Counted from the first letter of the stretch, positions 17,665 to 61,339 are shown. The stretch: DNA of 64,000 nucleotides from Acidobacteriota bacterium (GCA_965209055.1 OZ242374.1:4672001-4736000), one strand, 5' to 3'. The notes: generated by a model not told the origin, from the letters alone. Program-made: numbers and translations.

Positions 17665-17926
17665 GGAGGGGGAATTTCCCTGTCCCCCCGTCTTTCTGCT
17701 CCCCTTTCCTTCGACAGTTCCTCGCCCGGCCCGCTGTCGCATTGGAGTTCGGCGGTAGGAAAACCGCCGCTCCTGCCGGAGGGGCGATTTCCAATCGCCC
17801 GGTTTCCCTCGCTCGCGGTCGTCCAAAGAATCGGCGGTTAGGAAACCGCCGCTCCGGCCGGAAGGGCGATTTCCTAATCACCTGGTCCGGCAACTCAAGA
17901 ATCGGCGGCTGGGAAACCGCCGCTCC
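17665..17926. repeat. BIME-like array of three inverted REP-like doublets
   Basis: Arms at 17665-17689, 17750-17773, 17778-17800, 17832-17855, 17860-17882, 17903-17926; each is GGA(G/A) + 8-9 bp stem + TCC loop, alternating orientation. Confidence 0.85.
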
Positions 17927-36432: not shown

Positions 36433-36527
36433 GTTGGAACGTCCGGCAGCAAAAAACCCGTTTACCGTGGAAGCGAAGCGAGATAGGAAACGGGGAAGAG
36501 CGTGCCGGCTTTCAGAAACCGGGTCTA

Positions 36528-36673
36528 CTGCCTGTTTGTCGCGCGTTCAGCATGTCAAACATGGGGAGCCAACCACTTTACCGATTCGGCGAAGAACCTG
36601 GTAAACGTCTGAAACAGTTACTGTTTAGCAGTTCTTGACTGAGGGGCGGACGGGTTTGGGAATCGCTCCTCCT
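36528..36673 (+). mobile_element. Orphan attR-like copy of the right end of the 49841-60463 element
   Basis: 123/146 ungapped identity to 60327-60472 (manual count); ends in core-like GTTTGGGAATC plus REP arm. Confidence 0.8.
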
Positions 36674-49238: not shown

Positions 49239-49782
49239 AGCGGTCGAGCCGGTCAAGCTACTGGTGGCCCTGCTCTGGGCCGACTCCCGTTCCCGGAATT
49301 CGGCGCTGGAGGATATGGAGCGCCGGTGGGGCGCCATCGACTTCAGTGGAGCCGACCACCCATTCGACGTCACCGATTACTACGAGGCGGAAATGGGACC
49401 GTCGGTGCAGAGGCGCCTGGTGAGCTTCTCCCGCATGATCCCTCCCGAGTCCCTTCCGGAGGTGAAGCTGGCGTGCAACCGGATCGAGGAGCAACTGGCC
49501 CGCCGAGGCTGCCGCCGGGTCAATCTGGACGCCGGCTATCTGGACCACAGCAAGGTGGTCCTGGCCAGCATGAAGTTCGCCGGCCAGAAGATCCACCTGG
49601 GCCAGGGTGTCTACGCCGACCTCATGAGCCGCTACCGGAAGGGCCGGTACCGGCCCCTGGAGTGGGCGTTCCCCGATTTTCGAGACGGCCGCTACGACGC
49701 GGACCTGGCCCGGATCCGGGATTTGTATATGGCCAGTCGGCGGGGAGCGGCGATTTCCAATCGCCGATCAGGGGAGGGTTAA
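49225..49782 (+). CDS. DUF4416-like conserved protein
   Basis: TDYYEAEMG, RRVNLDAGY, VVLASMK, W.FPDF; 3' end runs through a REP arm. Confidence 0.8.
   Translation: MAQVEAVEPVKLLVALLWADSRSRNSALEDMERRWGAIDFSGADHPFDVTDYYEAEMGPSVQRRLVSFSRMIPPESLPEVKLACNRIEEQLARRGCRRVNLDAGYLDHSKVVLASMKFAGQKIHLGQGVYADLMSRYRKGRYRPLEWAFPDFRDGRYDADLARIRDLYMASRRGAAISNRRSGEG
49744..49766 (+). repeat. REP left arm of the doublet whose right arm is split by the island
   Basis: GGAG-CGGCGATT-TCC-AATCGCCG. Confidence 0.85.
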
Positions 49783-49840
49783 TGGAAGGTAGTCCCCTCC
49801 GTACACTTTCCCGATCCAATTAGGTACGCAAAGACGGGAC

Positions 49841-49965
49841 GATTGGAAATCCGTTGTACTGTCCAGATGAGCTACGGGATTGGTCCTTTCTTTTCAACAG
49901 GTTATCCTGATTCTCCTCTCAAATTTTTCCCCTTGGTTCTTGCCCGTTGCCTGTTTGTTGCCTGT
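49841..49965. promoter_or_regulatory. attL: core, IHF-like site, arm-type repeats
   Basis: Core 49841-49851; TTTCAACAGGTTA 49892-49904; TGCCTGTTTGTTGCCTGT 49948-49965. Confidence 0.7.
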
Positions 49966-51008
49966 TGCGTTTGGGAGTCTTCGTTAGCCTGTGCCTCTCG
50001 AATGCTCTGGAGTGCATGCGAACTGACGTACCCGGCGTAGCGCATGGTCGTGCTGATCGCCGAGTGGCCCATCAGCTTCTGCACCGTCCTCACGTCCACC
50101 CCCTGCATCAGCCAATGGCTGCACCGGAATCGCCGCAGGTCGTGAAATCCGACCTTCAGCCCCACGCTCTCGGCAGCGCGACGTAGCGGCGTGTCGGGAT
50201 TCACCCATCTCGTCCCAGTCCGGCTGTTGACAAAGACGTAAGAGGTGTTCAAGTATCGTGGGAGCCCTGCCAGATATCCGGTGGCGTACTGCGAAAGCGG
50301 AATCTCCCTCGTCTCGTCGTTCTTGGTGAACTCCACCCATAGCAGCCGGCGGACCAAGTCCACCCGTTTCCAGGTGAGCGACAAGGCTTCGCCTTTCCGT
50401 ATCCCCGTCTCGCCGATCACCGCAACCATGGCTTGCAGGTAAGGGTTGTCCATCGCCTCGACCAGGTCGCGGAACTGTTGAACCGTCAAGGGCCGGAAGA
50501 CCTTCTTGGGTTCTTTGAGTTTGGGGAATCTCACCAGCGGGTGCGTGTCCACCTCCCCGCACTCCAGCGCGTAGGAAAACATCTTGCTGATGGCGGCGAC
50601 GGCGCGGTTCACCGTGGCCGGCTTCACCTGTTTCTTCCTCTGGGCGACGTAGCGGTGCAGGTCTTTGCGTTGGAACTCCTTCAGGGGAATGTTCCCCAGC
50701 ATGGCGTTGAGGCTCTTGAACGAACCCTCGTAGCTCCGCCAGGAGCGCATGCGAGGTTTGCAGTACTCCTCGAGAAATCGTTCGTAGAAGCTCCGGACCG
50801 TCCAGAAGGTGCGTTTCCCACCGGCGAGTTCCCGCTTGAGCTGCTTCCAAGTGCCGTCCAGGATGCTGGACTCGATTCGTGTTTGAAGCGCCTGTGCGCT
50901 CCGGTAGTTGGGGGCGTACATTCGGAGCCGACCGGATCCGTTCGGCCAGTACTTGCTGACGACGTACCGTCGTCTCCCCCGGCGATCCTTCACCTTATAG
51001 ATGCCCAT
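49902..51008 (-). CDS. Tyrosine recombinase / phage-type integrase
   Basis: TGIRKGE (R), TKN (K), FHDLRR (HxxR), MGHS (H), TMRY (Y); AAGGAGG RBS before ATG 51008. Confidence 0.96.
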   Translation of the reverse strand: MGIYKVKDRRGRRRYVVSKYWPNGSGRLRMYAPNYRSAQALQTRIESSILDGTWKQLKRELAGGKRTFWTVRSFYERFLEEYCKPRMRSWRSYEGSFKSLNAMLGNIPLKEFQRKDLHRYVAQRKKQVKPATVNRAVAAISKMFSYALECGEVDTHPLVRFPKLKEPKKVFRPLTVQQFRDLVEAMDNPYLQAMVAVIGETGIRKGEALSLTWKRVDLVRRLLWVEFTKNDETREIPLSQYATGYLAGLPRYLNTSYVFVNSRTGTRWVNPDTPLRRAAESVGLKVGFHDLRRFRCSHWLMQGVDVRTVQKLMGHSAISTTMRYAGYVSSHALQSIREAQANEDSQTQQATNRQRARTKGKNLRGESG

Positions 51009-51246
51009 GCATCTCCTCCTTTCTGGATCCGGGTTCTTCGCCTTGGGGCGAATCGTACCACGGCTCCAGAGAATCAACGCAGGCGTTCAAGTCCACTGGG
51101 GCGAAGACGCGTCGGTGCCGACCGGCGGTGTCCGGTTCGGCTCTGGCTTGGATGACGTTCAGATCGGCCAATTTGCGAATCGTGCCGATGCCCTTGCCCA
51201 GATACTGGGCTGCGGACGCAACACTGAAAAGCCTCCGGTTGGGCAC
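50995..51246 (-). CDS. Excisionase-like HTH protein
   Basis: LFSVASAAQYLG....TIRKLAD...I.A...RRVF..VDL; overlaps the integrase start. Confidence 0.8.
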   Translation of the reverse strand: MPNRRLFSVASAAQYLGKGIGTIRKLADLNVIQARAEPDTAGRHRRVFAPVDLNACVDSLEPWYDSPQGEEPGSRKEEMHGHL

Positions 51247-51352
51247 CTGGATCAGGGCGGCTGGGCGGTCGTATGCACGGACGCACCCTATACGGTCATG
51301 GAGGCGGCGTTGGGTGGTGTCCTAATTTGAAATCGGGCAGAACTACCCACTA

Positions 51353-51733
51353 TCAGTTGGTGTGGCGGTTCAGTACCGACTGATAATAGTTCTTTATCTT
51401 TTCCAGTTTGGGAAGAATGTCCCGGTCCACGACCCCACGGTCCCAGGTACGAGCCTTGTAACGTGCACAGTAGGCACTTGACTTCAGGGGGCCATAGAAG
51501 CGGACCAAATTGCGTCTCAGGTCGGGATGGGAGGCAACTACCCTCGCCCTCGTCTCGTGGCTGTGGGGGTCAAAACGACATGTTGGAATTATGTCGATGA
51601 TGGCATCGACATAATGAAGGGCCGCATATCCCGCGACAACAACCGCCCAAGTCCAGTGTGTGCGGGATTTCAACAAGTAATCCAAACACTCCTCGCACTC
51701 TTTCGCCTTCCGCAAGTGCTGTTCATAGGTCAT
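51353..51733 (-). CDS. HEPN-like domain protein (putative toxin)
   Basis: H..KA...W.VV..YAALH.V.A...H..R...Y..L.....ARY pattern; 126 aa, helical. Confidence 0.65.
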   Translation of the reverse strand: MTYEQHLRKAKECEECLDYLLKSRTHWTWAVVVAGYAALHYVDAIIDIIPTCRFDPHSHETRARVVASHPDLRRNLVRFYGPLKSSAYCARYKARTWDRGVVDRDILPKLEKIKNYYQSVLNRHTN

Positions 51734-52271
51734 TGGACAGGACTTTGAACTCGTCGGAGACAGTTACTGAGTGTGGCAGAACGTAACAGTCAAAACCGAA
51801 AATCCGATTGGAGACGATCAAGTCAGCCTCAAAATCGAAAACCTCGCCGACCTCGTCATAGTCCAGATCCTTGAAGAGAGACCAGACGACAACAGTACTG
51901 CTCCTCCGAAGATAGACCACACTGTGGGCATTCGGGAAGGTCGCAAACACGCGGTCGGCGAATGACTGCATGATGTCTTCCAAACGTGCGGCATCCCGCT
52001 GCACAACAACTTGAGTCGCTGGTTCAGTACTGAGGGAACGAACGTCTCCAGTTAGTACCGGTGCCCAACCGGAATTCCAACAGCGACCCAGATCTCCCAG
52101 GGCCATCAGGTCCAATCCATCGGCCACCTTGGGCGTTGTGCCGTCACGAACGGACTGTGGACGCTGCCACGCCTGTCCTTCAAGGAGAGCGTCCTGGCAA
52201 GATACGAATCTTGGATGGTCAACCATCACCGATCCGGTCAGGCTACGAGATGACGAGACTTGGTATTTCAT
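51723..52271 (-). CDS. Hypothetical protein, C-terminus resembles a degenerate MNT-like antitoxin
   Basis: Low-complexity N-half, then V.VW....D....VF.FE..L.....FDCYVLP; TGATG coupling to upstream gene. Confidence 0.5.
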   Translation of the reverse strand: MKYQVSSSRSLTGSVMVDHPRFVSCQDALLEGQAWQRPQSVRDGTTPKVADGLDLMALGDLGRCWNSGWAPVLTGDVRSLSTEPATQVVVQRDAARLEDIMQSFADRVFATFPNAHSVVYLRRSSTVVVWSLFKDLDYDEVGEVFDFEADLIVSNRIFGFDCYVLPHSVTVSDEFKVLSNDL

Positions 52272-52519
52272 CAATGAACCTCTTCTTCGTCAGGACTCCG
52301 CGACACGTCCACTACATTCGAAGAACGAACCAAGAAGATCGGCTCTCCGTTGGCGTCCTTTCTGTTGAGACGGTGGATCTTGGTCGCCACCAGTTTGATA
52401 CGAACCGTTGATCCGTCCTCGCACGAATACTCGTTCCAGTCTTCGCGGACCGAGGAGAACCCAAGCTCCGTCGAGGGTTCCCATTTCCCGTCAACCATGA
52501 TTCGCGTTTTCTTAGACAC
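52271..52519 (-). CDS. Small beta-rich hypothetical protein
   Basis: 82 aa, EDWNEY..EDGS..RIK.V...D.NGEP.F.V.S.NVV; GGAGG RBS. Confidence 0.75.
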   Translation of the reverse strand: MSKKTRIMVDGKWEPSTELGFSSVREDWNEYSCEDGSTVRIKLVATKIHRLNRKDANGEPIFLVRSSNVVDVSRSPDEEEVH

Positions 52520-52626
52520 TACAATCCTCCAATTTCATTAGAATCAGGTACTTACGGATTCAAGATGATTAGACGCGACCACACACCGCCAACAGTTTCT
52601 CCATCACCTCATGCAAAAGTACCACA

Positions 52627-54348
52627 CTACACAGCCTCCCCGCTAGTTGGTCGGTCGTGTCCTAGTGCGGGGGCAACGGATGCCAGCACGTCATGCAGAA
52701 GGGAATCGAGGAGACGATGGCGGGTGCCATCGGCGGTACCGATACCGGCTTCCAGCCGATGGCAGAGCACCATGAGTTCATCGACCTTGCCGACGATGCG
52801 GTGCTGCTCGGCGAGCGGCGGCAAGGGAAGCGGCAAGGCCCGGAGAATTGCCTGATTGATCTTTGGCATTGTTTTCTGCGCCCCGGTTGCGTTTTCCGAG
52901 AAGTAGTTCCTGGCCGCGGGAGATACACAAAAGAGATGTACGAATCTCAAGCTGACTTCGGAAGAAAGCCTCACGCGTATCATCAAATCCGGGAAGATGA
53001 ACTCTCCCGGCGGACCATCGTAGATCGCAGCCATGCCGACGTATTCGCGGGTATTGCCGCGCTGAAACAACAAATCGTTAGGTTGGAGCCAAAACTCCGA
53101 GTCTGGCCCGATGACCGCGTCAACTCGCTTGAAGTGGGAGATGTCAAAGGTGCCGCTTGTCGTGGCGCTAAGAGTGACTGCCCTTGGCGCATCCTCCCTT
53201 GCTGACGGGCGTGGCGACAGCCCATTCCTTGGGCCAGCAACGATTACGTGTCCTAGCTGTCCCCACGCCCAGTTGGACGGCAGCGCATACATGCCTTGGA
53301 TGGGATTGCGGCACTTGTCCGGACGCGGCGAGGACAGACGCGCAGACTTTATTCGCGCGTGAACTTCTTGACCGGAGCCCTCCTCTGGATTTGGCTCCAC
53401 GAGCTTCCCCCGCACGGCGAGGCCAAGAATCGTCTGGCGTAGATGCCTGATCTGATCGGCACGAGCGGTCAGTGCGGGCAGGGCATCGACGGCAAAGCGC
53501 GCGTGAGAACGAAACGTCGGCGCGTCGATGTCGGGTGCGTTCAGACGGGTCAGGCTGGCCTTGGTCAGCCGGTCGCGGGTGTCCTCCCGCACGGTGCGTG
53601 CTTCCTCCAACTGGTCGCAGACGGCCATGAGTTCGTCGACCTTGGCAGCTATGCGGTGCTGCTCGGCAAGGGGCGGGAGGGGAAAAGGAATGCTCAGTAA
53701 CTCTTTGAGCTTGATGCCCTTCACTGTCAGGCCAGTTCCTTCGAAACCGTGCGTCAGGAAAAAATTGTAGGTGTAGTCAACGCTCAATAGGTCCGACAGG
53801 ATAAGCGCTCGCAGGTCTTGATTAATGGCAACAGCGACCCTGTTGATCGATACCTTGCCTAGCCCCATGCGGGTCACGACAAGGAGGTTGTCCGGCTCAA
53901 TGAGGTTCGATGAACTGTTCTCAAGGCCAGCCTCTGTGATGCGGTCAATGGTGTCATCGAGATACTTGGACTTGCCAACGTCCTTGACGCTTGCCCAGCG
54001 CACCGAACCACCCCAGTATTTCCCATTGCTTTTCGAAGGTGTCCCACCTCCAAGATGCTTGACTATGACGTCGCCCAGTGCGACGAAGGACCAGCCTGAG
54101 GGCAAGTCATAAGAAGGTTCATCGACTACTTCTATCCGCTTCAGTTTCCTGATCAGTCCCGCCTTCACCAGCCGCGCCTTCTGCGCCGCCATCCGTTTCA
54201 GCAATTCCGCCGCCGGTTCATCCGACGGATCCTGCTCCACCAGCTTCCCCCGCACGGCAAGATCCAGCACGAAGCGGCGCAGACGGCCAACGGCGCCTGG
54301 TGCCTCGGCTACGCGGTCATAGAGGGCGAACAGGCGGTCGGCATTCAC
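52627..54348 (-). CDS. hsdS: Type I R-M specificity subunit
   Basis: Two TRDs with repeated LAVRGKLVE and PLPPLAEQHRI. Confidence 0.95.
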   Translation of the reverse strand: MNADRLFALYDRVAEAPGAVGRLRRFVLDLAVRGKLVEQDPSDEPAAELLKRMAAQKARLVKAGLIRKLKRIEVVDEPSYDLPSGWSFVALGDVIVKHLGGGTPSKSNGKYWGGSVRWASVKDVGKSKYLDDTIDRITEAGLENSSSNLIEPDNLLVVTRMGLGKVSINRVAVAINQDLRALILSDLLSVDYTYNFFLTHGFEGTGLTVKGIKLKELLSIPFPLPPLAEQHRIAAKVDELMAVCDQLEEARTVREDTRDRLTKASLTRLNAPDIDAPTFRSHARFAVDALPALTARADQIRHLRQTILGLAVRGKLVEPNPEEGSGQEVHARIKSARLSSPRPDKCRNPIQGMYALPSNWAWGQLGHVIVAGPRNGLSPRPSAREDAPRAVTLSATTSGTFDISHFKRVDAVIGPDSEFWLQPNDLLFQRGNTREYVGMAAIYDGPPGEFIFPDLMIRVRLSSEVSLRFVHLFCVSPAARNYFSENATGAQKTMPKINQAILRALPLPLPPLAEQHRIVGKVDELMVLCHRLEAGIGTADGTRHRLLDSLLHDVLASVAPALGHDRPTSGEAV

Positions 54349-55796
54349 CGCAACAGTGCCTCGGTCAAGATTCCTTTCAACTGGTCTCGTACCGATATCA
54401 CCTCGGCCTCGGCACGCGTCAACTCCTCCAGAAGCGTCTCGGGATCGCCATGATCTTCTTCCTCGGTATGAGGGTTCTTGATGTCGAGGTTGTATCCGCG
54501 CGCCGTAATCTCCTCAACAGTCACCTTCCAGGCGCGATCACCCTCCTCTCGACCCGTGCGTTCCATCCCACCCCACCAAGCAGCACAGTCCTCAAGATGC
54601 TCCAGCCGGATGGGTCGGGTCATGGAATAGGCTTTTTGGCCTTCGGGAACGAGATGTTCCCAGAACCAGATGTCCTTGGTCGGTTCGCCCTTCTCAAAGA
54701 ACAGCAAGTTTGTCCCGATCGAGGCGTAGGGACGGAACACCGAATTCGGCAGGCGCACGATGGTGTGAAGATTGCATTGCTCCATCAGTTGCTCCTTGAG
54801 CCGGGTCTTGACGCCCTCGCCGAACAGGGACCCGTCGGGTAGGACCACGGCAGCCCTGCCGCCCGGTTTCAGAAGCCGGATGATCAAAGCTAGGAACAGA
54901 TCCGCCGTCTCGCGCGTCTGGAAGTGCTTCGGGAAGTTGGACTCGATGCCGTCCTCCTCCTTGCCGCCGAACGGCGGATTGGTCAGCACAATGTCCACGC
55001 GCTCGTCCCTGCCCCAGGAGATATAGGGACGCGCCAGCGTGTTGTCGTGGCGCAGAAAGGACGGATCCTCGATGCTGTGCAGGAGCATGTTCGTAACGGC
55101 GAGCATGTGGGGAAGCGGCTTCTTCTCAACCGCCCGAAGGGAGGTTTGCATTCTTGCTTCGTCCTCGGGCCGCTTCACGTACCGTTCGCGCATGTGCCGG
55201 ACGGCGCAGGTGAGGAACCCGCCGGTGCCGCACGCCGGATCAAACAGGGTCTCCCCGGGTTTCGGGTCGATCATCCGGGCCATGAACGAGGTCACGGCCC
55301 GTGGCGTGTAGTATTCGCCCGCATTGCCGGCCGATTGGAGATCGTTCAGGATCTGCTCGTAGATGTCGCCAAAGTGCCGGCGGGCAGCCAGGTTGTTGAA
55401 GTCGATCCCGTTGATCTTGTTGACGACTTGCCGCATCAGTTGCCCGGACTTCATGTAGTTGTAGGCATCCTCGAACACGTCGCGCACGACGTTCGCGCGA
55501 GGGGCGGCACTGGGCAAGAGTTTCTTCAACTGCGGAAAGAGATCACCATTGACGAAGTCGAGCAGATCCTCGCCCGTGATGCCTTCCGGGTCGGCGGCCC
55601 AACTCCGCCACTGCAAGGAGTCAGGTAAGGGTGAACGGTATCCGTCCTTAAGTACTTCGAGCTCCCGGTCCTGATCGTCGATGATCTTGAGAAAGAACAT
55701 CCAGCACAGTTGGCTGATGCGCTGCGCATCGCCATCAACGCCCACGTCCTGGCGCATGATGTTCTGAATGGACTTGACGAGGGTGCTGACGGACAT
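54345..55796 (-). CDS. hsdM: Type I R-M N6-adenine methyltransferase
   Basis: GEYYTPR, DPACGTGGFL, TNPPFGG. Confidence 0.97.
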   Translation of the reverse strand: MSVSTLVKSIQNIMRQDVGVDGDAQRISQLCWMFFLKIIDDQDRELEVLKDGYRSPLPDSLQWRSWAADPEGITGEDLLDFVNGDLFPQLKKLLPSAAPRANVVRDVFEDAYNYMKSGQLMRQVVNKINGIDFNNLAARRHFGDIYEQILNDLQSAGNAGEYYTPRAVTSFMARMIDPKPGETLFDPACGTGGFLTCAVRHMRERYVKRPEDEARMQTSLRAVEKKPLPHMLAVTNMLLHSIEDPSFLRHDNTLARPYISWGRDERVDIVLTNPPFGGKEEDGIESNFPKHFQTRETADLFLALIIRLLKPGGRAAVVLPDGSLFGEGVKTRLKEQLMEQCNLHTIVRLPNSVFRPYASIGTNLLFFEKGEPTKDIWFWEHLVPEGQKAYSMTRPIRLEHLEDCAAWWGGMERTGREEGDRAWKVTVEEITARGYNLDIKNPHTEEEDHGDPETLLEELTRAEAEVISVRDQLKGILTEALLR

Positions 55797-55799
55797 CTC

Positions 55800-58154
55800 T
55801 TACGCGACCTCTTGATAGAGAGCGGACTGTACATCGTGCACCGCCCGCTCGAAACCGGGCTTCCCGCCGAACGCGCGGACCAGTTCCAACGGTGTGCCGA
55901 GTCGGTCGAGTGGAGCGATCCTGAGAAACTTGGCGTCGTCGATATTGAGCATACCCTCGTCCGCGTACTTGTCGAGCAACGCATCGAGCACAGCGCGGGC
56001 CTGACCTCCGTATTTCGTGAACACATCCCGCTTCTTGACGTTCTCGGCCCGCTCACGGCGGGTCAGCGGTTTGGCGTCGAAGGCGACGTGGCAGACGAGA
56101 TCGAAGGGGTCGAGATCCTTGTCCAGCTCTTGCGCGATCACTGTAAGCGGCAGGCCCTCGGCCTCCATCTCGTCAATGATCGCCTGCTTGCGCTCGGCGG
56201 CTTTCCATCGGGTCAGGAAGTCGTCAAGGCTCGCGAAGCGCCTACGCAAGGCCTTCCTCGTGAAATCGCGTAGCGACTCGGTCACCAGCTTGCCGTGCCC
56301 GTCGAGATACTGCACCCGCGCGGCGACGATGGCCACTTGGACGCCATCGACATAGATTTTCTTCTGTGGCCCCGGTGGCGGATCTACGTCGCCGTTCCCG
56401 TTCGGGCCGGGGTCCGGCCCATCGGGTGGCGCGATCGGACCGTCTTCCTCCGGCCTGTAAATCTGGACCGGCTCGCCGTCGAAGTCCGGGTCCGCGAAAT
56501 GACCGGTCGCCCCCCGGAAGTCGATGAGCGTGAAGTAGAACTTTCCTGTGTCTTCGTGAACGCGGGTACCGCGGCCGACGATCTGCTTGAACTCGGTCAT
56601 CGACCCCACCTTTCGGTCGAGTACGATCAACCGGCAAGTCTGGACATCGACGCCGGTGGATAGCAGGCGCGACGTGGTGACCAGGACAGGATATCTCGAT
56701 TCCGGGTCGATGAAGTTCCCGAGCTCGGCCTGTCCCGCAGCATCGCCACCGGTGATCCGCATGACGTAACATGAGTTGCCCTCGACGAGATCCGCGTTCT
56801 CGTTGATCAGTGCCTGGCGCATCCGCGCGGCGTGTTCCTGATCGACGCAAAAGATGATCGCTTTCTGGAAGCGGTCGCCACTCTCCTTCAGGAAAGTTGT
56901 GACCTTTTCCGCGACGAGTGTCGTCCGCTCGTCGATGACCAGAGTTCGGTCGAAGTCCGTCAAGTTGTAAATGCGATCCTTAACTGGCTCGCCGACGCGG
57001 TCGACCTTTCCCTTCTCTGGGCGGTAGCCCTCCACGTCACGATCGATATGGACCTTGACCACCTTGTAAGGCGCGAGGAAACCGTCTTGGATGCCCTGCT
57101 TCAAGGAGTAGGAGTAGACCGGCGCCCCGAAATAGGCAATGTTGGAGATGTACTTCGTCTCCTTCGGTGTGGCCGTGAGGCCGATCTGGGTTGCGGAGGA
57201 GAAGTATTCGAGGATCTCGCGCCATGCCGAATCGGCGGCGGCACTACCCCGGTGGCATTCATCGATCACGATCAGATCGAAGAACCCCGGCGTGAAATTC
57301 CGGTAGGCCTTCTGGTATTCCTCCGGCCCGGTAATCGCCTGATAGAGACCGAGATAGACCTCGTACGCGGGGTCGATACGGCGCGAGAGCTTGGTCATCT
57401 TACCGCCGAACGGGCGGAAATCGTTCGTCATCGTCTGGTCGACAAGCACGTTGCGGTCGGCGAGGAACAGAATGCGCCTCTTGCGTCGTGCCTTCATTAG
57501 CCTCCAGATAATTTGGAAGGCGGTGTACGTCTTGCCCGTACCTGTGGCCATGACGAGTAGGATACGGTCCTGCCCCTTGGCGATGGCCTCGATCGTCGCG
57601 TTGATGGCGTTGACCTGATAGTAGCGCGGCGTCTTGCCGCCGCCGTCATCGAAATAGTCTTGAAGGACGATCTCCTCTGCTTCCGGCGTCAGGCCCTTCC
57701 AGGCCCGATAGCGCGCCCACAGATCGGTGGGTGACGGAAAGTCTTCGAGAGAAAGGTTCGACTCAAGCGGTGTACTGGCCGCCGTGCGGTCGTGGAACAC
57801 GAAGCCGTCGCCGTTGGAAGAGAACGCGAAGGGAACGTTCAGGATCTCAGCGTAATCCAGAGCCTGCTGCATGCCGTCGCCGACGCTGTGGGAATTGTCC
57901 TTTGCCTCAATCACCGCGATCGGGATGTTCGGCTTGACATAGAGGACGTAATCGGCGCGTTTGCCTTTGCCGCGTGCGACCAGCTTGCCGCGCACGACGA
58001 TGCGGCCCTTTGTGAAGCTCACCTCCTCTCGAATCTGGGACATCTCGTCCCACCCGGCGTTGCGAAGGGCGGGCGTGATGAACTTCGTGCAGATGTCGCG
58101 CTCCGAGAGGCCTCTGTTGTCCATCCGGCTCAGAGGCCCCCCGTTCTGTTCCAC
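55800..58154 (-). CDS. hsdR: Type I R-M restriction subunit (EcoAI/EcoEI-like); alternative start 58124
   Basis: AD...IEAK nuclease motif, [38 protein letters not shown]-terminal domain. Confidence 0.96.
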
Positions 58155-58155
58155 G

Positions 58156-58344
58156 TCACTCCCGTTCCTCTGTTTCCGGTCGGGTACCAGGCATGTGGAG
58201 CGCCTTCATCGGCTCAAATTCCTCTACCGAGAACACCACGACAACCGGCCGCCGGTGCTTCGTAACCGTGAAGGGTGCGGCGCAGGCGAGGCCGATGAGG
58301 CGTCCAAAGCAGTACTTCACGTCTTTCGCGCTCAGTGTCCGCAT
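58156..58344 (-). CDS. Phd/YefM-family antitoxin-like protein, orphan, possibly decaying
   Basis: [15 protein letters not shown]....P..VTKH.RPVVVV.SVEEF. Confidence 0.75.
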
Positions 58345-58650
58345 GCCATTCCCAAAGTTGATGGCAAACGTCAATCTTGGACAATTTGGCTGACCGGAGC
58401 AAGGCGAAGTACCCACTTGGACCCTTCCCAATTCGTTATCGGACGCCAAGGTCAGCTAATCTCACTTGTCTATGGGCGTTCTGCTCCAGCGCTTCGACGA
58501 GGTCCCGGTTCCCATTCCGGATCGAGCGTTCAACCAGATCCACTTGCCACCCCGGATCAGCAAGACCGATGGCCTGCGCCGCCCCACAGAGGATTGACTA
58601 CACGGGTTGCCAGAGCCAGCCTTATTGGAGCCTTCCCGCCAGGGATAATT

Positions 58651-58752
58651 TGGACGGGAGCGACCCCCCCAAGGGGGTGTGGCGCAGATGTGAATTGCGC
58701 AACACCCCCGCGCCCGCACCGGGCAGCAAAAAGGGGGGGTCGCTCCCGTCCA
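58651..58752. repeat. Nested inverted repeats (three-way junction)
   Basis: Perfect 20-bp outer IR 58651-58670/58733-58752; 13/14-bp inner IR 58673-58686/58696-58709; small hairpin 58712-58724. Confidence 0.9.
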
Positions 58753-59567
58753 CCTCCATTTTCCCCGTGCGGCCACCCTGTGGCCGGAAATATGGCCGCA
58801 ACTGAGTGAAACGCCAAGGGATCGGGGGAGACGGATTTGTGAGTCACCGGGACCGCTTTTTGTGAATCCACCCCCTTTGTCCCATTCACATCCCGGATCG
58901 GGCGCGAGACCCTCTTTTCGCACAGCCGAAACGGCCCTCCATCAGCCTTTGCGACTGCCAAGTGCGGAACCGTCTCGGCAACCGTCTCGCAACGTTCGCA
59001 ACACTGCTCACTTGGCCCGACCCGATAGCCTCGCCTTCCGGCGCAGGTCCGCTCGAAGCCCATGGACCCCTGGATCGGTTCGGCTGTCCAGGCTCCCGAG
59101 ATTCCCCGTAGCGAGCGCGTCGGATCAATGGATGGGATCGGTCTCCAAGTCTTGAACTTCGCTGGCCTGGGAAACCGGGACCCGCCCCCGGAGATTAAGA
59201 CCACAACGGCAATCATGAGAAACGACCCTGATCGCCTTGGGCCTGATTGTTGCCGGTGGCTCTCTGGCGACGGGGGGGGCTGTTCCACGCCGTTGCGTAC
59301 CACGAAACCGTGACCGTGACGCTCATCAGGGCCTAGGGAAGTCGCTTCTCGCGGGCAGCCAACGGCCAGACGGCCACATTCTTCCCAACTCAGCCGGAGT
59401 CATCTGCCGCCAAGGCGAGGAAAGAGGTAAGGCTCTCCGCTAAAGGACCATGGGCTTGTTCAGACCTTCCCTAAAATCACGCCATCTGAACTTACCCAGT
59501 GAGCCGATTGCGGAGAAAAATACACATTTCATAGTGCGAGTCTGATCAATACCAGGAGGTAGGCATC

Positions 59568-60128
59568 ATGAGAATCCTTAGAGGCATGCGCAACAGGCGG
59601 TTTCGGAAGACGATGGCTGGGGGATTGGTCCCCTTGCTGCTCCTGGTGGTCTTGCCGGGGTGTGTCGCGCGGCACATGCCGGATTGGGAGAAGTTGGAGA
59701 ACATCCGTGACAACGCGATCACGCGGGTGGAACTGTATGAGGACAACACTCTTGGTGACGGCTCGACCAAGTACACGGGTCAGTTCTACGGGGCGTCCTC
59801 CCGGTCCATGACGATTGTGTCCACGGACGGGATGTCGCAGACGTTCCAGCGACCGGACATCCGCAAAGTGCTGGTCGAACGTGATTTCGGCAAGCGGTGG
59901 GCCGGATGGGTTGCCCTGGGCTTTGGATTGGCGCTTTGCTCAGGTTTTTTGAGTGACGATTTCGCTCCGAGTGCCCAGGTTCTATTCGGAATTGCTCTTC
60001 CTGTCGGTGTCTCCATCCCGTTTTTCATGGGCTCAAAGATGGGAGGCATTTACGAGATCCCTCCATCGCAAAGAGGAGAATGGAACCAGTATAGTGCTGG
60101 CCGACTGGAATCGAAGTCCGGCAATTAG
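59568..60128 (+). CDS. Putative lipoprotein with two C-terminal TM helices (island cargo)
   Basis: AGGAGGT RBS, basic N-region, LLLLVVLPG-C lipobox. Confidence 0.75.
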   Translation: MRILRGMRNRRFRKTMAGGLVPLLLLVVLPGCVARHMPDWEKLENIRDNAITRVELYEDNTLGDGSTKYTGQFYGASSRSMTIVSTDGMSQTFQRPDIRKVLVERDFGKRWAGWVALGFGLALCSGFLSDDFAPSAQVLFGIALPVGVSIPFFMGSKMGGIYEIPPSQRGEWNQYSAGRLESKSGN

Positions 60129-60316
60129 ATGTTTTTCCAAGGATCAACTTGTGATGAAGGTGAGTGAAGACGGGGAAGCCGTTGCCAATGGGAAACGAAT
60201 TTGTCAGGGTTCAGGGGTTGCCGAGCGTCGCTGTCCAAAGATCGATACAGCGCACGCATAATGTGTTTTGAACCTGGGGAACAAGGGAAAAGAGAAGAGA
60301 TTGTCGGCGTTCAGGA

Positions 60317-60471
60317 ACCGATTCGGCTGCCTGTTTGTTGCCTGTGCAGCACGCCAAACATGGGGAGTCAACCACTTTACCGATTCGGCGAAGAACCCGG
60401 TAATCCATTGAAAACGTTAATGTTTAGTAGTTATTGACTGAGGGACGGTTGGGATTGGAAATCGCCCCTCC
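60317..60471. promoter_or_regulatory. attR: arm-type repeats, accessory repeats, IHF-like site, core, REP remainder
   Basis: ACCGATTCGGC x2 (60317, 60379); TGCCTGTTTGTTGCCTGT 60328-60345; TAATCCATTGAAA 60401-60413; core 60453-60463, then GCCCCTCC. Confidence 0.7.
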
Positions 60472-60499
60472 TGGCGCGGACCGTTTATGATGTGGGGCA

Positions 60500-61339
60500 A
60501 TGCAAGCTACACGAAATATGCTCTCGCTGGCGGCCGGTCTGGCTTTCTCCGTCCAGCTCGGATCGTGCGGGACTGCTCCATCTGATCAGACTCCCCAGCC
60601 TCCCGAACCGGAGGCCGTCGCCGGCTGGCGGATGGTCGACCTCACTCACGCTTACGGCGGGGACACGCTCTACTGGCCCACCGACACCACCGGATTCCGG
60701 CTTGAGACGCTTGCCGAGGGACAGACGCCCGGAGGCTACTTCTACGCCGCCAGGAAATTCGCGACCGCGGAGCATGGCGGAACGCACCTCGATGCGCCCT
60801 TCCACTTCGCCAAGGGAGGCGCCACTGCAGAATCGATTCCCTTGGAGCGACTCATCCTCCCGGGGATCGTCATTGACGTCACCGCGGCGGCGGCGGCCGA
60901 TCCGGACTATCTGGTCACGCCGGCAGACATCACGGGGTGGGAGGAGAACCACGGCCGCGTGCCGGAGGGGTCGGCCGTACTGATCCGGACCGGTTGGGCC
61001 GCCCGCTGGCCTGACGCCCTCGCCTACCTCGGCGACGACACACCCGGCGAGACCGGAAACCTGCACTTTCCCGGGATCGGTGAAGCGGCGGCCCGTCTGC
61101 TGGTGCAGGAACGCGCCGTCGGGCTGCTGGGCATCGACACCGCCAGCGTGGACTACGGTCAGTCCACCGACTTCATCGTCCACCAGGTCGGGGCCGCCGC
61201 CGATGTGCCGAATCTGGAGAACGTTGCCGACCTGTCGGCATTGCCACCCCTTGGGTTCCTGCTCGCGGCGTTGCCGATGAAGATCGAAGGCGGCACCGGC
61301 GCGCCGGTGCGGATCGTCGCGCTGATCCCGCCGCGTTGA
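60500..61339 (+). CDS. Cyclase / kynurenine formamidase-like metal hydrolase, exported
   Basis: EHGGTHLDAPFHF, LIRTGW, HFPG, GIDTASVD, LENV, GGTGAPVR. Confidence 0.9.
   Translation: MQATRNMLSLAAGLAFSVQLGSCGTAPSDQTPQPPEPEAVAGWRMVDLTHAYGGDTLYWPTDTTGFRLETLAEGQTPGGYFYAARKFATAEHGGTHLDAPFHFAKGGATAESIPLERLILPGIVIDVTAAAAADPDYLVTPADITGWEENHGRVPEGSAVLIRTGWAARWPDALAYLGDDTPGETGNLHFPGIGEAAARLLVQERAVGLLGIDTASVDYGQSTDFIVHQVGAAADVPNLENVADLSALPPLGFLLAALPMKIEGGTGAPVRIVALIPPR

Follow-up and report, generated by a model that had tools for sequence, protein, structure and literature searches.

Single-site specificity is a textbook property of tyrosine integrases, which usually target tRNA genes. The Islander survey (PMC4383910) counts 2,083 islands with an anticodon-centred attP, and 159 with a fragment of the 5′ part of the tRNA gene against 3,760 with a 3′ fragment, so that on these counts the anticodon sublocation is common and the 5′ type rare. 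Repetitive extragenic palindromic (REP) sequences are targets of insertion sequences (IS), among which the review PMC3184786 names IS1397 of the IS3 family and IS621 and IS1594 of the IS110 family. Here we describe a 10,612-bp island in a 64,000-nt stretch of DNA from an Acidobacteriota bacterium (the window, by which we mean this whole stretch), for which an earlier note had proposed a tyrosine integrase that targets a dispersed REP. We conclude that the island is, very probably, the integrative element of its own lambda-type (heterobivalent) tyrosine integrase, and that its attB is the hairpin of a REP rather than a unique gene. This conclusion rests on the anatomy of the junctions, the multiplicity of the insertions, the host origin of the REP arms, and the tRNA ancestry of the integrase.

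Boundaries of the island and ownership of the REP arms

The island is bracketed by a direct repeat of an 11-bp core, GATTGGAAATC, at 49841–49851 (+) and 60453–60463 (+), and the positions, the flanks, and the int and cargo genes in between all proved to be as the earlier note had described them. The reverse complement of the core is found at 17786–17796 and 49752–49762, which brings the matches in the window to four, compared with none in 100 dinucleotide shuffles. Outside the island, the core is preceded by GGAC on the left and followed by GCCCCTCC on the right. When these outer flanks are joined around the core they match the reverse complement of the REP at 17778–17800 at 22 of 23 positions (the mismatch is A for G at the third base), the same figure that the note had reported.

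The left copy of the core is attL. It abuts a four-base remnant of the left arm of a host REP at 49837–49840 (+), which reads GGAC where comparison with other REP copies gives the consensus GGGC. The right copy is attR, at whose first base contigs of runs X20 and X24 begin exactly, and it is followed at 60464–60471 (+) by the right arm of the host REP, GCCCCTCC, and then by the leader of a cyclase-family gene, an assignment based on REP copies, relatives and X24 contigs. On the other side of the island lies a DUF4416 gene, at the 3′ end of which (and overlapping the end of the open reading frame (ORF) as called) is a host REP copy of opposite orientation, 49744–49766, recognised as one of an inverted-repeat pair and from its occurrence genome-wide. 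The arms 49744–49762 and 60453–60471 are complementary at 95% over 19 nt. The note's term "doublet" for what joining the flanks recreates is a loose one, as the spacer to the partner arm is 74 nt here compared with 36 nt in the X24 allele. The GC content is 0.51–0.64 inside the island and 0.62–0.68 outside.

The 11-mer core occurs 104 times in the genome that contains the window (G000), where 0.9 copies are expected from base composition, and longer forms of the repeat are also abundant (79 copies of a 17-mer and 48 of a 19-mer). Nearly all copies of the 11-mer stand in the context (G)GGC, core, GCC(C), which is a hairpin with an 8-bp stem, and in the form GGGC-GATTGGAAATC-GCCC the core occupies the middle. 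Whether viewed as an 8-bp stem with a 3-nt loop or as a 6-bp stem with 7 nt, the repeat is a short imperfect palindrome present in high copy, as a REP should be. Two direct copies of the core 10.6 kb apart are, given the 104 copies in the genome, unremarkable by themselves. What goes beyond chance is the composition of each of the two, in which a REP half meets a conserved element end, and the recurrence of this arrangement at 25 other loci.

Many REP copies lie in doublets or arrays alongside a second type of palindrome; window positions 17665–17926, for instance, hold an array of differing palindromes that include GGGGGAATTTCCCTGTCCCCCC, GGCGGTAGGAAAACCGCC and GGGGCGATTTCCAATCGCCC. The genome has a superfamily of repeats built from a G-stem, a GGAAA-type loop and a C-stem, other variants of which are found at orthologous places in relatives. 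One REP array adjoins an ORF of 252 aa that matches Y1_Tnp (IS200-like; 29.7 bits against a cut-off of 23 bits) at positions 1336–2094 of locus L109 (G000 1142805–1143563, minus strand). Related REPs lie on both sides of this ORF, a REPtron-like arrangement, and one of the elements described below (that of class E) is inserted at the edge of the array.

The REP is also present in relatives. The exact 17-mer is found in five same-genus genomes (7 copies in G001, 42 in G002, 58 in G003, 27 in G005 and 17 in G008), and a control with the reversed pattern gave none. G001 has the REP yet has no homologue of the integrase at E ≤ 1e-60, and the single homologue of G003 sits in a tRNA gene. A DUF4416 orthologue is present in all eight same-genus genomes (87–90% identity), and in four of them (G008, G002, G001 and G006) the cyclase gene follows it after about 50–240 nt with no integrase in between; in G004, G003 and G007 the cyclase gene is not within the 1.5 kb that was fetched, and in G005 there is a weak partial match 1.4 kb away. 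In G001, G002 and G006 the conserved leader (...GGTTTATGATG) is immediately preceded by the end of a REP that belongs to the same superfamily and has the same orientation, at exactly the place where G000 has the core and GCCCCTCC, and the spacer between the two genes in G008 holds a single REP of another variant.

Contigs from run X24, which belongs to a study other than that of X20, the run that covers the stretch best, join position 49767 to 60453, and the 36 letters in between end in GGGC. One such contig of 284 nt matches 60453–60636 with no differences; upstream of 60453 it runs on into a REP left arm, and its first 100 nt are not element. The X24 contigs thus show an intact REP that abuts the cyclase flank without the element. 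Taken together with the 17-mer in five genomes and the REPs at orthologous spots, they uphold the note's contention that the GCCCCTCC arm belongs to the host. In X20, contigs end at 49851 and start at 60453, and none bridges a junction. In X1, X2 and X24 the cargo lacks cover, from which we conclude nothing. We set aside a joint of 49769 to 60456 in run X2, as its sides are only REP and its ends at 60471 are loose; a REP from another place is its probable source. Metagenome contigs scanned with the integrase gave three partial N-terminal matches and no junctions. Several runs with parts of the stretch carry the label sponge metagenome, in small shares (0.14–0.27), and we draw no claim about habitat from them.

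A family of elements in REP-like palindromes

G000 encodes 26 full-length paralogues of the integrase, of 81–100% amino-acid identity, plus fragments. When 200-bp element ends were used as queries, 29 left-end and 30 right-end matches were found in the genome, and these pair into 26 elements of 2,673–25,055 bp, leaving three solo left ends and four solo right ends. All 26 paired elements are bounded within a REP-like palindrome that has a G-rich left arm and a C-rich right arm, and their cores are of six types.

Class A, to which the element in the window belongs, comprises four elements with the core GATTGGAAATC. Specifically, eight of the 104 copies of this core are one-sided, four of them reading element right end, core, GCCCCTCC, and four reading REP left arm, core, element left end; the eight junctions pair into elements of 7.5, 8.6, 10.6 (window) and 19.6 kb. 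Each of the four lies in a different copy of the REP at the same 11-mer, with unrelated sequence beyond the REP. The three besides that of the window thus bear out the boundary that the earlier note had placed there. The other 22 elements split other REP-like palindromes. Class B has the core GACTGTTAGTC (seven elements) and class C the core GACTAACAGTC (nine elements), which is the reverse complement of that of class B, so that the same host palindrome is entered in the opposite direction. This palindrome is rare: its 45 core copies consist of 32 element junctions and 13 empty sites. The ends of the four class D elements differ, with GGTAGGAAATC on the left and GATAGGAAAAC on the right (GATAGGAAATC in one of the four). 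Class E has a single element, with the core GATTAGAAATC, as has class F, in which GGTTGGAAATC on the left and GATTGGAAAAC on the right place class A ends within a class D-like stem. In other words, the class A attP is found in class F in a different REP stem, with which it has only TTGGAAA in common.

With 25 other elements that split REP-like palindromes, the claim that the integrase targets a dispersed REP is supported, and nothing in the boundaries of sites, in the placement of homologous integrases or in the ownership of the arm, the three points on which the note had let this claim depend, speaks against it. That the island might be an ordinary single-site island with a REP at its border by coincidence has in its favour that, with 104 REP cores in a genome, islands must sometimes lie near one. 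We give this explanation practically no weight, because 26 of 26 paired elements are bounded inside REP-like palindromes and the same is found in four other species.

A second explanation is that the REP-like arms are terminal repeats of the element itself, which would then be a transposon that inserts anywhere and only seems to split a REP. The right flank GCCCCTCC is indeed the same at all four class A elements, and classes B and C have few empty copies of their target. The class A left flanks, however, vary between insertions (gaacgggc, gacgggac and gcacgtgc), and class F has the same attP in a different stem. Moreover, the REP is present in 7–58 copies in genomes that have no element or a single tRNA-borne one, it is found at the orthologous spot in four relatives, and the X24 contig has it intact on the cyclase flank. 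We therefore consider terminal repeats an extremely unlikely source of the arms.

Copies at unrelated flanks can be nearly or fully identical. Two 2,756-bp copies are 100% identical, and a class D pair (G000 3698758–3711167 and 2810319–2820816) is 100% identical save for a 1.9-kb insertion in one of the two at element position 1148, in the region of the integrase gene; movement has therefore been recent. As an alternative, segmental duplication or homologous recombination among REPs might have multiplied the copies, with the integrase as a passenger. REPs are dispersed repeats, and flanks shared among three sites (172933, 484588 and 789048; see below) hint at rearrangement between sites. In 25 elements, nevertheless, one and the same base of the core marks the boundary, and the direct repeats are 7–11 bp long; the flanks past the REP are unrelated; and elements of differing content have in common only int, one module and the ends. 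An identity of 11 bp is, in addition, too short for efficient RecA recombination. Spread of a passenger integrase in this way strikes us as very unlikely, and we return to integration by the island's own enzyme.

The core sequences themselves indicate where strands may be exchanged. The 11-mers at the two ends are identical in 20 of 25 elements, and the remaining five have differences at position 2, position 10 or both and nowhere else; the exchanged segment therefore lies within positions 3–9, which is 7 bp (TTGGAAA in the window, 49843–49849). We infer this location from junction anatomy, that is, from differences between the cores of sister elements, rather than from cleavage mapping.

Incomplete copies accompany the family. 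Approximately at 36495–36663 in the window is a solo, diverged right end (82.6% identical to the right end of the window's element), after which come GTTTGGGAATC and GCTCCTCC; no integrase adjoins it, and an older insertion has probably left it as a remnant. At G000 2499713–2500674 a solo left end with a class A core carries an integrase broken in two frames, and its outer flank is not REP-like. An empty REP of the B/C type at G000 172933 has its left flank in common with the solo right end at 484588 and its right flank in common with the element right end at 789048, which suggests duplication or recombination between distant att sites.

The integrase, its tRNA-Arg relatives and a possible mechanism

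The integrase gene of the island, a 391-aa ORF from a TTG start at 49902–51077 (−), places its product in the tyrosine recombinase family (PF00589, E 1.2e-25, 90.7 bits against a cut-off of 27.1 bits, residues 197–348). Translation may start instead at the ATG of residue 24, giving MGIYKVK. Matches of the N-terminal part to SAM-like or Int_N families are weaker (E 6e-6 to 9e-3), and one of the five (PF13102, 16.9 bits) is below its cut-off. Candidates for the catalytic residues (R...HxxR...Y), picked by eye from the translation, lie in GIRKGE, HDLRR, GHS and RYAGY. In all 26 elements a 15-nt motif, TGCCTGTTTGTTGCC (up to two mismatches), is found near both ends in the same orientation, at a distance of about 97 nt from the left end and of 125 nt from the right. 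In the window, the candidate motif on the P′ side, at 49948–49962 (+), lies within the 3′ end of int and forms a direct repeat with that at 60328–60342, which lies in the conserved right end (the P arm of attP, 60253–60452, +; 30 right-end matches in the genome). The layout is that expected of the arm-type sites of a lambda-type integrase, with repeats on both sides of the core as in heterobivalent systems, and we regard the motifs as putative binding sites.

At E ≤ 1e-60 the integrase has 28 matches in G000, nine in G004 and between zero and two in each of the other same-genus genomes; a genome search at the family level added no genomes to the 15 already found. Homologues at least 86% identical in four other species (G004, G005, G007 and G008) abut REP halves, in agreement with the note's expectation that the boundaries of homologues would fall in REP cores. 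A REP left arm followed by GATTGGAAATC makes up the left junctions in G007, G005 and G008 and one of those in G004, where another consists of GGGC followed by GACTGGAAGTC; right ends in G004, G005 and G007 lead into REP right arms, with a wider set of cores. In G004 (loci L053–L080) there are 28 right-end matches for eight or nine integrase genes, and further core types, GAAGGAAAGTC and GACTAGAAATC; the surplus may consist of many solo ends or of non-autonomous derivatives.

The nearest homologues outside this REP group are those of G003 (82% identical), G035 (71%, two copies) and G010 (70%), and ARAGORN finds tRNA-Arg(tct) or tRNA-Arg(tcg) adjoining each. Their junctions are at the anticodon stem-loop, which on the displayed strand of tRNA-Arg(tct) reads GGA-TTAGAAG-TCC, so that the 11-mer here corresponds to the 7-nt anticodon loop with 2 bp of stem on each side. 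The 5′ half of the tRNA that has been displaced comes directly after the element's right end (attR) in G003 and G035, which means that these elements provide a new 5′ half themselves. Just inside the left end of the window's element, the 30 nt at 49852–49881 (−) align with tRNA-Arg(tct) of G000 and G003 and with tRNA-Arg(tcg) of G035 and G010, and are a decayed, element-borne tRNA-Arg 5′ half that runs from the anticodon stem to the acceptor end. Left ends of other core classes also align with the tRNA-Arg 5′ half. G000's own tRNA-Arg(tct) gene (307704–307778) is unoccupied, and ARAGORN finds no tRNA gene in the window or at six REP-type loci, so that these elements are not insertions in a tRNA or tmRNA gene, as their 70–82% identical relatives are. 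More distant homologues (38–53% identity) lie at tRNA-Arg in the usual 3′ orientation, or at tRNA-Leu.

In a tree of 51 integrases (26 from G000, 11 of the REP type from other genomes, nine at tRNA-Arg and five at tRNA-Leu), the 37 REP-type sequences form one clade (SH-aLRT 96), which is sister to the tRNA-Arg element of G003 (98) and then to those of G035 and G010 (100); next outward come tRNA-Arg targeters of the 3′ type. On this tree a single switch from tRNA to REP would suffice. Sub-clades of the REP clade track the type of core (D-like, A-like and B/C), and the B and C sequences are interleaved, so the orientation must have flipped repeatedly. The REP habit thus seems to have evolved from integrases that target the tRNA-Arg anticodon loop. 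We do not take the homologues at tRNA-Arg, at 70–82% identity, to refute REP targeting, as they show the source of the habit.

These relatives also bear on the possibility that another REP-specific enzyme, such as a RAYT-like Y1 transposase or one of the IS110 type, acts in trans to move segments bounded by REPs. The REP-flanked Y1_Tnp ORF next to the class E element, and the existence of IS families that target REPs (as listed in PMC3184786), make such an enzyme conceivable. The elements, though, have no transposase in common: no DDE or DEDD transposase, the mobility gene of REP-targeting IS, is found among the ORFs of the window's element, and the one DDE_Tnp_1 ORF is cargo of a single 25-kb element. 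By contrast, int is the only gene common to the 26 elements, which otherwise share only an approximately 337-nt non-coding module and the two ends, and in the 2.7-kb elements int is the sole ORF with a family match. Furthermore, junctions inside the hairpin loop, a duplicated core and conserved arm motifs are the att anatomy of a tyrosine integrase, and members of the same int clade use tRNA anticodon loops with identical end anatomy. Mobilisation in trans is in our judgement highly improbable.

How would the island's own integrase use a REP? In the mechanism that we propose, Int would bind the G-rich and C-rich halves of the stem as inverted core-type sites and would exchange strands over the central 7 bp (TTGGAAA here), with the assistance of arm-type sites, TGCCTGTTTGTTGCC, that lie on both sides of the attP core at a distance of about 100 nt. 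The REP hairpin would be accepted through the geometry of an anticodon arm, its stem and 7 nt copying the anticodon stem-loop. Lambda-type integrases require identity of the overlap between partners rather than a particular overlap sequence. In this system, attP and target would need to match only across the 7-bp overlap, for which class F, with the same attP in a different stem, may be an example. An attP overlap altered, for example, by recombination with a REP of slightly different sequence could then retarget the element to other REP variants or to the same REP in the opposite orientation. The lineage descends from integrases that cross over in the tRNA-Arg anticodon loop, with the tRNA 5′ half still carried although useless, and the element would spread within the genome like a transposon, among dozens of neutral landing sites and with mostly defence cargo. 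A bridge-RNA-like guide is not supported, as 24 of 25 elements lack any exact internal 9-mer of their own core. More tentatively, the integrase may read shape over sequence (a G-rich stem, a 7-nt spacer and a C-rich stem, possibly as a cruciform), provided that the overlap matches attP. With the overlap rewritten for each REP variant, the element would be a self-reprogramming, transposon-like carrier of cargo that records the steps of escape from a tRNA to a new target. We hold this last idea as a possibility that is more likely wrong than right.

Several points weigh against REP targeting by the island's own integrase. No recombination, circle junction or excision has been seen, and the contigs obtained from the runs are short and end at the cores, none bridging attL or attR. 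The note's expectation of empty-site alleles is borne out by the adjacency of DUF4416 and cyclase genes with a REP in four of eight relatives and by the REP of X24, but not by a strict empty site in a near-identical strain, the relatives being 87–90% identical with other REP variants at the spot; in addition, the X24 joint is tied to the locus by its right flank only, its left side consisting of no more than 20 nt of REP arm. About 90 N-terminal residues of the integrase, where an arm-binding domain should lie, have no Pfam match. No excisionase was identified in a Pfam scan of the ORFs or by tblastn of the 70-aa ORF upstream of int (51074–51286, −) across the 26 elements; the label "xis" given to this ORF in the earlier note is not supported, as the ORF has no Pfam match and is found in only six of the 26. 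The idea of many neutral landing sites applies to class A but not to classes B and C, whose target palindrome is rare, with 13 empty and about 16 occupied copies. The 26 paralogues are not independent, and all REP-type examples come from one genus, with nine genomes. G000 is a metagenome-assembled single contig of 6,077,182 bp with an estimated contamination of 7.4%. Finally, the tree was made with IQ-TREE (LG+G4) by quick search with SH-aLRT values only, its root was assumed to lie on the tRNA-Leu sequences, and it holds few genomes and many paralogues.

Cargo, significance and comparison with known systems

The cargo of the window's element is a type I restriction-modification system at 52627–58154 (−), made up of hsdS (52627–54348; Methylase_S, 1e-25), hsdM (54345–55796; N6_Mtase, 3.5e-72) and hsdR (55800–58154; ResIII, 8.8e-44, with EcoEI_R_C and HSDR_N). 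Next to it, at 58156–58449 (−), is a small Phd/YefM-like ORF whose match is weak (PF02604, 27.3 bits, below the cut-off of 29.8 bits), and the island contains further small ORFs without family matches. Among 19 large cargo ORFs from 12 elements that were compared with Pfam, 11 are restriction-modification or defence genes, namely HsdR, HsdM, HsdS, Type ISP, MmeI-like, ResIII, N6_N4 methylase (one with Mrr), GmrSD (one with Schlafen AlbA_2) and Cas3-like; the remainder are one leucine-rich-repeat, one fibronectin-III and one DDE transposase ORF and five without a match. The ORFs were chosen by length (20 were picked), and the proportions are therefore indicative only. Proteins of 1,182 aa (leucine-rich-repeat) and 950 aa (fibronectin-III) are among the cargo at loci L112 and L115 (G000 1122177–1125725 and 1147602–1150454).

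The non-coding module of 337 nt, at 58630–58966 in the window, is present in all 26 elements, has 70 hits in the genome and is at multi-copy depth in reads. It folds strongly (consensus fold −117 kcal/mol), with nested hairpins and 20-nt inverted arms at 58651–58670 and 58733–58752, and single-base indels argue against its being coding. An Rfam scan of 49700–60600 gave nothing above threshold, the best hairpin resemblance scoring 31.4 bits against a gathering score of 53.1, and the copies are too alike for covariation to decide. It may act as an RNA, as an origin of transfer or in regulation.

The lineage described here has moved from the tRNA-Arg anticodon loop to REP hairpins, has reached 26 copies in one genome and has diverged to use at least six types of target, with one palindrome entered in both orientations. 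It offers a concrete answer to how an integrase can change its target, namely by structural mimicry of the anticodon arm, and it adds to the roles of REPs that of docking sites for islands rich in defence genes. In addition, the elements supply natural attP/attB pairs in which positions that have to match (the 7-bp overlap) can be told from those that are free to vary (the stems), a distinction useful for retargeting integrases. If the integrase does read shape, one genome would record the steps of a tRNA-specific integrase towards a new class of target.

Like the elements described here, phiRv1 of Mycobacterium tuberculosis has a site-specific integrase with its attB in a multi-copy chromosomal repeat, as it integrates into copies of REP13E12; it differs in that the enzyme is a large serine recombinase and in that REP13E12 is about 1.4 kb long, in few copies and not a short hairpin. 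The integron integrase, IntI, is, as here, a tyrosine recombinase that acts on varied imperfect palindromes, the attC sites, which share shape more than sequence. IntI acts on folded single strands and without arm sites, whereas the predicted arm motifs and lambda-like layout of the present elements suggest duplex substrates. In the full-text literature searched, whose coverage leaves out most subscription journals and supplements, we found no tyrosine integrase that uses REPs as attB.

With the IS that target REPs, as listed in PMC3184786, these elements have in common the use of REPs as neutral, multi-copy landing pads and the presence of several copies per genome. Those IS move by a DDE or DEDD transposase, with a bridge RNA in the IS110 family (PMC11208160), whereas the present elements have a tyrosine integrase with putative arm sites, up to 25 kb of cargo, no shared transposase and, as far as was found, no internal copy of the core. 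The closest likeness is to the class 'A' islands of Islander (Williams 2002, cited in PMC4383910), which have an integrase of the same family, a core composed of stem, 7 nt and stem with the crossover in the 7-nt loop, and a copy of the displaced tRNA half; the nearest homologues of our integrase are of the rare 5′-fragment type, in tRNA-Arg. What sets the present elements apart from islands in tRNA genes is that their target is a dispersed, non-coding palindrome in tens of copies rather than a single essential gene, that the tRNA half has become a decaying relic, and that the core has diversified among 26 copies in one genome.

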